Of a stretch of 64,000 nt of DNA, positions 17,433 to 19,417 are shown in pieces (position 1 is the stretch's first letter; the number at the start of each line of letters is the position of its first letter). The stretch is from Kiritimatiellia bacterium. GTDB taxonomy: Bacteria; Verrucomicrobiota; Kiritimatiellia; RFP12; UBA1067. Position numbers and translations under genes: made by a program. The notes beneath the pieces are model-generated. The model saw nothing but the letters and a program-made list of their open reading frames with translations. It had not been told where the DNA came from and searched no databases. The stretch lies in the NCBI GenBank assembly GCA_017450695.1, contig JAFSTA010000168.1:17826-81825 (forward strand), in the 5' to 3' direction.

Positions 17433-18047
17433 TTATGTCAGAGAAAGGTTTTCGACGGTCACGTTTTCCCAGCCGGGGAGGGCGAGGAAGTGTTCCAGCA
17501 GGACGGCGCAGGCGAAGGCGTCGTAGAGGGCGTCGTGCGGGGCGCGGGGCGGCAGGTCGGCGGTCTCTCCCGGCGCGGGACAGAGTTCTTCCAGCCGGGC
17601 GGAGAGCCCCAGGGCGTCGATCACCTGGTCGAGCGACTTGGAGGGCAGCTGCGGGTAGGCGTACCGCGTCAGGTGTAGCGTGTCGATCCAGCTGTCGAAG
17701 CGGTGCATCGGGGCGATCTTCGTCAGGATGGTACGCTCTGTCCCGATGTTGTGCGCGACCAGCGTGCAGTTCGTCACCCACGGGCAGAGTTCGCTCCAGC
17801 TCTCGCGCGGGGTGGGAGAGGCGGCGAGCAGGTCGCGGAGCTGCGCATGGCGTCCGGGGGCGCGGGGGTTGAAGGGACGGTCCGGCGCGATCTGGAAGTA
17901 GCGTTCCCAGTACTCGTCTGCGCGCACCCGGCCGTTCTCCATTCGGACGATCCCCAGTTGCCACGGCTCCAGTTCCCAGCCGGGGACACTCCCCGTGGTC
18001 TCGAAATCGAGGACGGAGAAGTTCGCTTGTCTGGCCAGGTTCAGCAT
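17433..18047 (-). CDS. DEDDh 3'-5' exonuclease (DnaQ/epsilon-like domain protein)
   Basis: ExoI FSVLDFETTG, ExoII LVAHNIGTERTIL and ExoIII HDALYDA. Start moved to ATG 18047 (MLNLARQANF); the upstream part of the track ORF is Arg/Pro-rich. Overlaps the stop of the upstream gene by 7 nt. Confidence 0.8.
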   Translation of the reverse strand: MLNLARQANFSVLDFETTGSVPGWELEPWQLGIVRMENGRVRADEYWERYFQIAPDRPFNPRAPGRHAQLRDLLAASPTPRESWSELCPWVTNCTLVAHNIGTERTILTKIAPMHRFDSWIDTLHLTRYAYPQLPSKSLDQVIDALGLSARLEELCPAPGETADLPPRAPHDALYDAFACAVLLEHFLALPGWENVTVENLSLT

Positions 18048-19417
18048 AGGGAGGTGGGGGTGCGGGCGAAGTCGTTGAGTTCTTCGACGTCCTTGGTCAA
18101 CGCGTCGATCTTGCGACGGGCGAAACGCGGGAGCTGCCGCCAGTGGCTGGTGAGCACGTGCTTGAAGTTCGGCTTCAGCGCCTCCCAGCATTGGCGAAGG
18201 TCATCGCGGGAGAGGGTGAGGAGATCATCCGCATATTCCTGCTCGAAGTGTTCATCCAGTTTCTCCAGTATCTGGTGTTCCGAGTAGTTGACGTAGGCGC
18301 GGAAGGCGGGGTAGAGCAGGCGGGCGATGACCACCGTGATTCCGGCCGTGGCGAGGCACTGCAAGGTGAAGACGACGATCTTCATGGTACTGGTCAGGTC
18401 TCGCACGCTGACGCCGTAGGTGTTGAAGAGGATGAATCCCGCGCCCGCGAGCAGGAGCAGAAGCAGGAGGTAAAGCCCCAGCTTCGAGAGGAAATTTTGG
18501 GAGAGGAACTTGCGGAGTCGCAGCCCCATCCGCATCTGCATACCGAGCGAGGAGAAATCGGTGTTCGCCGCCGCCAGCACGTTGTCCTTGCGGCGTTCGG
18601 AGGCGTGGGAGATTTGCCCGACGATATCCTGCAGGGATTGCTGGAAGTCCTTGATGTCAATGTCGGGCGTCGCCTTGGAGTTGCCGCAGGGGACGCAGCA
18701 GTTGTAGATTTTCGGGAGGTCCTTGATCGGCAGGGCGTGGGCGAGATTCCAGCAGAGTGCGCCGTAGGCCCGCGCGTAGTCGTACATGTTGGCGAAGAGG
18801 TCGCACTTGTTCATCAGCAGGCGTAGCTTAAAGGTCATGCCGGAGAGCGGCCCGGTCAGGACCTCGATCGACTCGCCGGTGGTTCCGGGTTTGTCGGGGT
18901 CGAACATCATGACGATCAGGTCGGAGAGTTCGGCGAGGGAGTGGATCGCGCCGAAGAAGTTGTAGTCGCGGATGATCTCGCGGTCGCGCACGTCGATCAT
19001 GCCCGGGCTGTCGATCAGGATGCACTGCTTGAGGATGTCGCGCTTCGTGACCTTCACGCGCAGGTGTTGCAGGAAGGTCGCGCCGAAGGTTTTCAGCCGC
19101 GCGTATTCGGGCGGCAGGAGGGCGAGCGCGGAGTCGCCGACGACCTCGCGCGGGACGTCGCCGTACACCAGCACGGTGAAGCCGTCGTCCGTGGGGGCGA
19201 CGCCGGTGTCCTGCACGGCGAGTCCGCCGAGCAGGAAGTTGATCAGCGTCGATTTACCCGACGAATGGTTGCCGAGGAAGAAGATGCAGGGCAGCGTCTC
19301 CGCCGAGACGCCCGTGCGCTTGTAGGGATAAAAGAAACGTTCGGCATCCGGGCGATAACGCTCGTAGAGCAGGCTTGCCAATTCTTCGGTCGTGTAGGTC
19401 TGTTTCTGGTTTTTCAT
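18041..19417 (-). CDS. Dynamin-superfamily NTPase with EHD-like G domain and a C-terminal two-helix membrane hairpin
   Basis: Real start is ATG 19417 ([13 protein letters not shown]); the 704-aa track ORF is an upstream run-on. G1 [9 protein letters not shown], G3 LIDSPG, G4 NKCD. Extended similarity to eukaryotic EHD G domains recalled from memory (see finding). Two hydrophobic helices: [19 protein letters not shown] and [22 protein letters not shown]. Confidence 0.75.
   Translation of the reverse strand: [458 protein letters not shown]

Follow-up and report, generated by a model that had tools for sequence, protein, structure and literature searches.

The stretch analyzed here is 64,000 nt of contig JAFSTA010000168.1 from a Kiritimatiellia bacterium (the window, in whose numbering all coordinates are given). 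Positions 18041-19417 on its minus strand hold a gene of 458 codons plus a stop that is predicted to encode an EHD-like, membrane-anchored nucleoside triphosphatase (NTPase) of the dynamin superfamily, and all features of this gene described below lie on the same strand. Its ATG (19417-19415) overlaps the TGA (19416-19414) of the GT10-like gene upstream, and a Shine-Dalgarno sequence, AGGAGG (19425-19430), can be read 7 nt 5' of this ATG. The N-terminus agrees with those of homologous proteins in an alignment of 47 family members (A1) that also served as the family profile. The closest reference relative, at 94% identity, comes from a sheep-rumen Kiritimatiellae metagenome-assembled genome (MAG; locus L001). 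The ratio of nonsynonymous to synonymous substitution rates (dN/dS) between the two orthologues is 0.055, which identifies the open reading frame as a real gene under purifying selection. A preliminary description of this DNA, made from the sequence alone, had considered that the host might belong to the Planctomycetes-Verrucomicrobia-Chlamydiae (PVC) bacteria; the nearest reference bears this out, as Kiritimatiellota fall within that group.

Homology to the EHD proteins

A single-sequence phmmer search against all PDB chains placed EHD4 (4.9e-24) and EHD2 (1.9e-23) at the top, with query residues 30-279 aligned, and returned no dynamin-superfamily chain other than the EHDs at E<10. With the A1 profile the corresponding values were 1.9e-41 for EHD2 and 1.1e-40 for EHD4, and the next dynamin-like chains were a Campylobacter dynamin-like protein (DLP; 0.0036), the Nostoc BDLP (0.22) and MFN2 (0.27). 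An EHD profile matched all 267 bacterial members collected, the window protein with 94 bits, and comparison of the bacterial family with an animal EHD alignment by hhalign gave an E value of 3.5e-34 across query residues 10-244 and EHD residues 21-256. The animal EHD sequences were mostly exon-limited fragments with intron read-through whose tails were trimmed, and the EHD profile past residue ~306 is built on three sequences. The HMMER register sets EHD2 G65 opposite query G49, EHD2 W238 opposite query W223, and EHD2 residue 296 close to query residue 279.

Pfam by itself would miss this kinship, because Dynamin_N reaches 26.7 bits in the window protein, below its cutoff of 27, and MMR_HSR1 (26.8 bits, cutoff 21.9) is confined to the P-loop, residues 45-65. 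The Pfam families EHD_N and DUF5600 were undetected in the window protein. In sequence, profile and predicted fold, the protein is nearer to EHDs than to BDLP, LeoA, IniA, mitofusin or Era/Der, and it is a genuine and specific homologue of the EHD-type dynamin-family NTPases. The preliminary description had proposed this homology by comparison with animal sequences, and the proposal held up with phmmer (4.9e-24), with the profile (1.9e-41) and with Foldseek (1.7e-16). All of the motif pairs it had listed are in register with mouse EHD4 and EHD2 in the HMMER alignment, including D[ST]PGI and NKAD. It had also allowed that the protein might lie closer to ordinary bacterial DLPs, LeoA or Era/Der-type GTPases than to EHDs, and both the profile and the structure searches placed the EHDs first.

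The dynamin/EHD-type G domain extends over residues 44-245 (18683-19288), as located with Pfam, HMMER, the profile, hhalign and the structural model. Its P-loop (G1), GNHSSGKS (residues 49-56; 19250-19273), is invariant in A1 and aligned to the EHD P-loop; the serine at the position of Ser52 coordinates the cation in dynamin and EHD (PMC5084822). Switch I reads APTDD (residues 74-78; 19184-19198) and falls opposite EPTTD of the EHDs in the HMMER alignment, with A74, P75, T76, D77 and D78 invariant and the longer family pattern APTDDxFT invariant or nearly so in A1. The region opposite the EHD 'KPF loop' (residues 101-119; 19061-19117) was aligned to EKPFRKLNPFGNTFLNRF of the EHDs by both HMMER and the profile, and it keeps the FGxxFL core. 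G3/switch II, DSPGM (residues 136-140; 18998-19012), is invariant in A1 and aligned to EHD D[ST]PGI. At the position of an EHD loop lies a family signature, DPxKPGTTxE (residues 173-182; 18872-18901), in which D173, P174, K176, P177, G178, T179, T180 and E182 are invariant and whose D, K and E are common to EHDs. G4 is NKCD (residues 203-206; 18800-18811), with N203, K204, C205 and D206 invariant, and is followed by Leu207. The helix at residues 216-225 (18743-18772) carries the invariant Trp223, aligned to EHD2 Trp238; the pattern RxYGxxCWNL, which includes this residue, and the motif KDLP are invariant or nearly so in A1. In EHD2, W238 lies in interface-1 of the EHD-specific dimer, and the W238A protein is insoluble (PMC9741607).

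The Met right after NKxD is a determinant of ATP specificity that blocks the guanine amino group (PMC5084822). Across the family this position is variable (Q 59, R 58, T 32, A 32, L 27, M 12), and for that reason we rejected it as a basis for inferring ATP use. The preliminary description referred to EHDs as ATP-driven; ATP use cannot be carried over to the window protein, which has Leu, not Met, and a preference for ATP or GTP is not inferable from this position.

Predicted fold and membrane hairpin

A confident AlphaFold2 model built on the family alignment (pLDDT 87.8, pTM 0.82) comprises a helix at residues 10-27, the α/β G domain at 44-240, helices at 256-270, 272-334 and 344-385, and further helices to residue 452. 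When the model was compared with the PDB by Foldseek, the top five matches were all EHD2 or EHD4, at 1.7e-16 to 6.2e-14 over 401-421 aligned columns, with TMq values of 0.46-0.57 and a sequence identity of 20-21%. Lower ranks held IniA (3.8e-10), BDLP (3e-9), and then the Campylobacter DLPs and the mitofusins/Fzo1 (about 1e-7). The G domain makes up ~200 of the 458 residues and by itself would allow a TMq of at most ~0.44; the value of 0.57 to membrane-bound EHD4 (7SOX) lies above this ceiling, from which we infer that the helical domain partly superposes as well.

The N-terminal helix (residues 10-27; 19337-19390) is predicted to correspond to the portion that the N-terminus contributes to the composite helical domain of EHDs. 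It is included only within the contiguous hhalign alignment, which begins at query residue 10 and EHD residue 21; by itself it showed no significant match to EHD_N (hhalign E 0.093). Past the G domain, the predicted cytoplasmic stalk helices occupy residues 256-312 (18482-18652), where the HMMER alignment reaches query residue 279 and the model helix that starts at 272 would be the counterpart of EHD α8. The predicted cytoplasmic C-terminal helices (residues 369-452; 18062-18313) are conserved in A1, with invariant D388 and W411 and the motif RDDLRQxW. The protein stops at residue 458 after this helical tail, and no EH or EF-hand match was found in Pfam at E<=10. As modeled, the protein is predicted to retain an EHD-like composite helical domain, formed by the N-terminal helix and the long helices that follow the G domain.

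Two hydrophobic segments recognized by hydropathy form a helical hairpin. The first (residues 313-334; 18416-18481) continues the 63-residue model helix 272-334 as its final ~22 residues, and the second (residues 345-368; 18314-18385) opens the model helix 344-385 after a short loop. A hairpin was found in 200 of the 217 full-length family members, and the numbers of Lys and Arg residues around it (3.8 before, 0.7 in the loop and 2.6 after) fit the positive-inside rule and hence an N-in/C-in topology. The spacing between P-loop and hairpin is 256 residues in the window protein, and the 217 full-length members have a median of 261 (10th-90th percentile 253-273). In EHD2, 257 residues separate G65, the first P-loop glycine, from the membrane-inserting Phe322. 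The EHD helical domain is composed of residues 1-55 and 286-399; its long helix α8 is directed toward the membrane, and the α8-α9 loop inserts residues into the outer leaflet (PMC13427840, PMC9741607). Because of the spacing (256 versus 257) and the predicted fold, we place the hairpin at the EHD α8-α9 membrane-inserting tip, where it would represent an extension of the helical domain through the bilayer and not a replacement of that domain. The preliminary description had the hairpin replacing both the helical and the EH domains; its two-helix hairpin and the absence of an EH domain stand, but the helical domain appears to be kept, as indicated by the extent of the hhalign match (10-244) and the Foldseek alignments (401-421 columns).

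Family distribution and genomic context

When 1.84 billion representatives (50% identity) were searched exhaustively with the profile, a family of 2,511 representatives was recovered at E≤1e-3, of which 1,286 were at ≤1e-10 and 411 at ≤1e-30. A P-loop of the type GN[HY]S[SA]GKS is present in nearly all of the best 150 representatives, most of which also have hydrophobic segments about 260-320 residues past it, and some carry N- or C-terminal extensions. The members P0299, P0327, P0332, P0338 and P0345 (600-850 aa) have long extra N- or C-terminal regions outside the 450-aa core. Reference genomes contain 292 family loci, and the best 80 of these were used for all locus, taxon and neighborhood counts. 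Kiritimatiellae contribute 33 of the 80, Verrucomicrobia 17, Lentisphaerae 14 and Planctomycetota 3, and another 3 are probably mis-binned or of other origin. The family as a whole spans PVC bacteria, Gammaproteobacteria, Desulfobacterales and Bradymonadales. The EHD profile scores highest, with 161 bits, against a cluster annotated as "dynamin family protein [Wenzhouxiangella sp.]"; a further close member is from Bradymonadales. Desulfobacterales and Proteobacteria MAGs are the source of a subgroup whose P-loop is of the GNYS type, and two members of this subgroup, P0342 and P0382 (on metagenome contigs of 50-58 kb), carry the IMG label "EH domain-containing protein 1". Annotation is inconsistent across the family: NCBI uses 'dynamin family protein', '50S ribosome-binding GTPase' and 'hypothetical protein', JGI/IMG uses 'EH domain-containing protein 1', and 'GTPase SAR1 family protein' is also among the source names.

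A neighbor-joining tree was calculated on the N-terminal helix and G domain, with a midpoint root and no outgroup. The metazoan EHDs are monophyletic in this tree (bootstrap 100%), and the window protein falls in a PVC clade of 11 members (bootstrap 98%) and holds rank 64 of 66 when members are ordered by their distance from the EHDs. We discarded the placement of the GNYS group (Desulfobacterales/Proteobacteria) as sister to the EHDs as unreliable, given its bootstrap of 53%, the lack of an outgroup and the midpoint root. The window protein is a true relative of the eukaryotic EHDs and not a close sister, its PVC subclade being among the most distant.

The genes on either side are given as context only, and both are on the minus strand. 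Upstream, a GT10 (fucosyltransferase-like) gene identified by Pfam (19414-20460) is translationally coupled to the EHD-like gene by the ATGA overlap. Downstream, a gene for a DEDDh/RNase_T exonuclease, also a Pfam assignment (17433-18047), has a likely ATG at 18047-18045 that overlaps the EHD-like stop in the sequence ATGCTGA. These genes are part of a same-strand run that consists of an ABC ATPase, GH129, a pectate-lyase-like protein, GT10, the EHD-like protein, the exonuclease and Ham1. The preliminary description had pointed to a glycan/nucleotide operon. The start/stop overlaps make the operon real in the window, but the gene order around the EHD-like gene recurs only in the near-identical MAG L001. 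We rejected the operon as a functional clue, since it is only in L001 that GT10, pectate-lyase-like, GH129, DEDDh exonuclease and Ham1 genes adjoin a family gene.

Neighbors in the 80 loci were grouped by de novo clustering. The adk gene lies directly upstream in 23 loci and tsaB directly downstream in 15, and murG downstream and an M16 peptidase each occur in 6. Further upstream, about 1-2 kb from the EHD-like gene, 19 of the 80 loci have a gene for a coiled-coil membrane protein of ~370-400 aa, with an N-terminal transmembrane helix, a long coiled coil and a weak, sub-threshold DivIC-like match. The order coiled-coil protein, adk, EHD-like gene, tsaB is seen in 19-23 of the 80 loci, among them L022, L027, L030, L033, L036, L038, L040, L042, L046, L049, L051 and L054. 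The synteny with adk and tsaB may be a mere reflection of genome relatedness. The murG (GT28) gene is found just downstream in L002, L004, L005, L007, L008 and L009, which belong to the subclade nearest the window protein, and this adjacency gives a faint hint of a link to the cell wall or to division. No cluster of DLPs was found among the neighbors in the 80 loci, and the 64-kb window holds no second dynamin-like homologue.

A role in anti-phage defense, as for DynA, was considered and rejected, the EHD-like protein having no PADLOC match. The downstream DEDDh exonuclease does match PADLOC entries, 'DEDDh, CAS-associated' (4.8e-20) and PDC-S48; because no cas genes lie nearby, this is probably a generic match to the fold. 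Nothing in the base composition of the window marks the region as foreign. Overall, the context suggests a housekeeping, stand-alone gene.

The window contains several other large coding regions. A bacterial alpha-2-macroglobulin of 1612 aa (28804-33642, plus strand) has MG2, bMG3, bMG5, bait-region, A2M, TED and bMG10 domains. A 1047-aa protein (50711-53854, plus strand) has a C10 (streptopain-like) cysteine peptidase domain after a Spi/I69 inhibitor prodomain, and a tricorn-like protease of 1132 aa (1756-5154, minus strand) combines PD40 beta-propeller repeats with Tricorn C1, PDZ and peptidase S41 domains. Overlapping open reading frames on opposite strands at 41925-46607, of 1429 aa (minus) and 1236 aa (plus), are without a Pfam match, and either strand may be coding. 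A 1052-aa open reading frame (55301-58459, plus strand) is likewise without a Pfam match. No tRNA genes, and no Rfam families at the gathering threshold, were found in the 64-kb window.

Proposed mechanism and comparison with known systems

The reading that we favor, with moderate confidence, is that the window gene encodes a bacterial protein of the EHD/sarcalumenin branch that acts as an integral inner-membrane mechanochemical NTPase and forms an EHD-type scaffold. The G domain and both helical flanks would be cytoplasmic, with both termini inside. Stable dimers would form through the EHD-type helix that carries the invariant Trp223, as with Trp238 in EHD2. Nucleotide-loaded dimers would then join through a G interface made of the switch regions and the DPxKPGTTxE loop, building filaments or rings along the inner membrane on its cytoplasmic side. 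Such assemblies may bend, tubulate or stabilize curved membrane, with hydrolysis driving their disassembly. Anchoring at the EHD tip position would be permanent, whereas EHDs are recruited reversibly and insert only the α8-α9 loop. Division, envelope maintenance or repair, and membrane invaginations are candidate cellular processes.

Several observations weigh against this reading. The isolated helices after the G domain gave no significant match to the EHD helical domain (hhalign E 0.26; no Pfam match to DUF5600), and sequence homology between the two was not detectable; the equation of these helices with the EHD domain is drawn from the predicted fold and the spacing. The tripeptides of the EHD oligomerization loop are not conserved, with PEY in the place of KPF and KTF in that of NPF. 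In switch I an Asp, not a Thr, lies opposite the second Thr of EHD PTTD, EHD2 T94, which we take to be the catalytic switch-I threonine; a shift of one residue in the alignment is possible. The gene neighborhoods differ by clade (adk/tsaB, murG, glycan genes) and yield no functional clue, and our literature search found no experimental study of any family member.

The same architecture could serve a tether or fusogen of the mitofusin/atlastin type, in which G domains dimerize in trans across apposed membranes and hydrolysis draws the bilayers together, for example in repair, septum closure or the fusion of internal membranes. The linear layout of G domain, helical bundle, hydrophobic hairpin and returning helices is common to mitofusin, atlastin and BDLP (PMC5084822). 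Fusogenic DLPs, unlike EHDs, are typically anchored permanently, and the Foldseek matches at 4e-10 to 1e-6 include IniA, BDLP, the Campylobacter DLP pair, MFN1/2 and Fzo1. Sequence and fold are nevertheless far nearer to the EHDs, and the invariant EHD-specific dimer Trp argues for dimers in cis. Bacterial fusogenic DLPs are usually paired, yet de novo clustering of the neighbors in the 80 loci revealed no paired second DLP gene. A single cytoplasmic membrane, moreover, gives few apposed cytoplasmic faces. We regard a fusogen as an unlikely but serious contender.

An ordinary small regulatory or ribosome-associated GTPase of the Era/Der/MMR_HSR1 or Sar1-like kind, with a generic P-loop likeness to EHDs, is what the database names '50S ribosome-binding GTPase' and 'GTPase SAR1 family protein' and the above-cutoff MMR_HSR1 score would imply. 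That match, however, covers only residues 45-65, and the NCBIfam models score the window protein far below their cutoffs (Era 25.4 bits versus 237; Der 12.2 versus 306.7). The EHD alignment takes in ~235-250 residues including EHD-specific inserts, and neither Era nor Der has anything that corresponds to the hairpin or to the 200-residue helical part, which leaves this explanation very improbable. Recent capture of a eukaryotic EHD gene by a gut bacterium, from rumen protozoa or from the host, is suggested by the rumen habitat and by the usual description of EHDs as eukaryotic (PMC9741607), but is scarcely credible given an identity of only 20-21% to EHD2/4 in Foldseek, the 2,511 representatives spread over several bacterial phyla, the bootstrap of 98% for the PVC clade with the window protein 64th of 66 from the EHDs, and a base composition that shows nothing foreign.

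We also tentatively entertain a broader possibility. The bacterial hairpin and the EHD α8-α9 tip could be one structural element, in which case EHDs would descend from a bacterial scaffold with a permanent anchor, having lost the hairpin and acquired the EH domain. The PVC subfamily might then serve Kiritimatiellae, Lentisphaerae and Verrucomicrobia as a core membrane-shaping machine encoded by a single gene, which assembles EHD-like rings at the inner membrane, for example at division sites or invaginations.

The idea of a bacterial EHD relative is itself not new, contrary to what the preliminary description implied. Schäffer, Iyer, Burroughs and Aravind (2020, Front Genet) stated that EHD and sarcalumenin have "clear bacterial origins" and reported that their nearest bacterial homologues carry a pair of transmembrane helices after the GTPase domain (PMC7016017), and IMG already applies the EHD name. 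The window protein is a further member, in a PVC subclade, of this computationally described family. Structural papers still introduce EHDs as eukaryotic (PMC9741607, PMC11285977), and a literature search found no paper with the phrases "bacterial EHD" or "prokaryotic EHD". The wider significance is that the EHDs have a bacterial sister family that is large, ancient and strongly conserved. This family bears on the bacterial share in the eukaryotic endomembrane toolkit. Its single-gene, constitutively anchored proteins of ~450 aa provide an attractive minimal system in which to study the coupling of nucleotide hydrolysis to membrane curvature by an EHD-type G-domain dimer and the origin of ATP over GTP specificity. 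The window gene alone adds one member, from a subclade that is not nearest the eukaryotes. What this work mainly adds is a structural mapping that puts the hairpin at the membrane-inserting tip of the EHDs, along with the conservation of the dimer Trp; both give concrete predictions.

Among known systems, the classical DLPs (Nostoc BDLP, Campylobacter DLP1/2, B. subtilis DynA, M. smegmatis IniA) and the mitofusins share with the window protein the dynamin superfamily, a hydrophobic hairpin or paddle that caps a helical bundle, and helices that return toward the G domain. They are separated from it by profile E values of 0.0036 to 0.3 against 1e-41 for EHD, and by Foldseek values of 4e-10 to 1e-7 against 1e-16. 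They are also longer (600-1200 aa versus 458 aa), and the window protein contains just one helical bundle; a partner DLP gene was not found near its gene.

The bacterial EHD/sarcalumenin-like GTPases of Schäffer and colleagues are fully matched by the window protein, which is bacterial and has an EHD/sarcalumenin-like G domain followed by two transmembrane helices. A role in membrane dynamics was proposed for that family in PMC7016017. That study stresses the proteobacterial affinity to the eukaryotic branch, whereas the window protein is part of a PVC subclade (Kiritimatiellae/Lentisphaerae/Verrucomicrobia) with an NKCD G4, among the members farthest from the EHDs. It does not include a structural mapping of the hairpin onto the tip of the EHD helical domain.

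The comparison with EHD1-4 (2QPT and 4CID for EHD2; 5MTV, 5MVF and 7SOX for EHD4) shows both shared and divergent features. Likenesses comprise the extended G domain, an N-terminal helix that enters a composite helical domain, the dimer-helix Trp, the FGxxFL core, the P-loop Ser, NKxD, and a predicted membrane contact made by the end of the long helix after the G domain, at equal spacing from the P-loop. The window protein differs in being without the EH domain, the linker and the GPF/NPF motifs, and in having Leu after NKxD where EHDs have Met or Gln. A full hydrophobic hairpin takes the place of the peripheral polybasic/Phe tip of the EHDs, and the C-terminal helices carry conserved motifs of their own (D388, RDDLRQxW).

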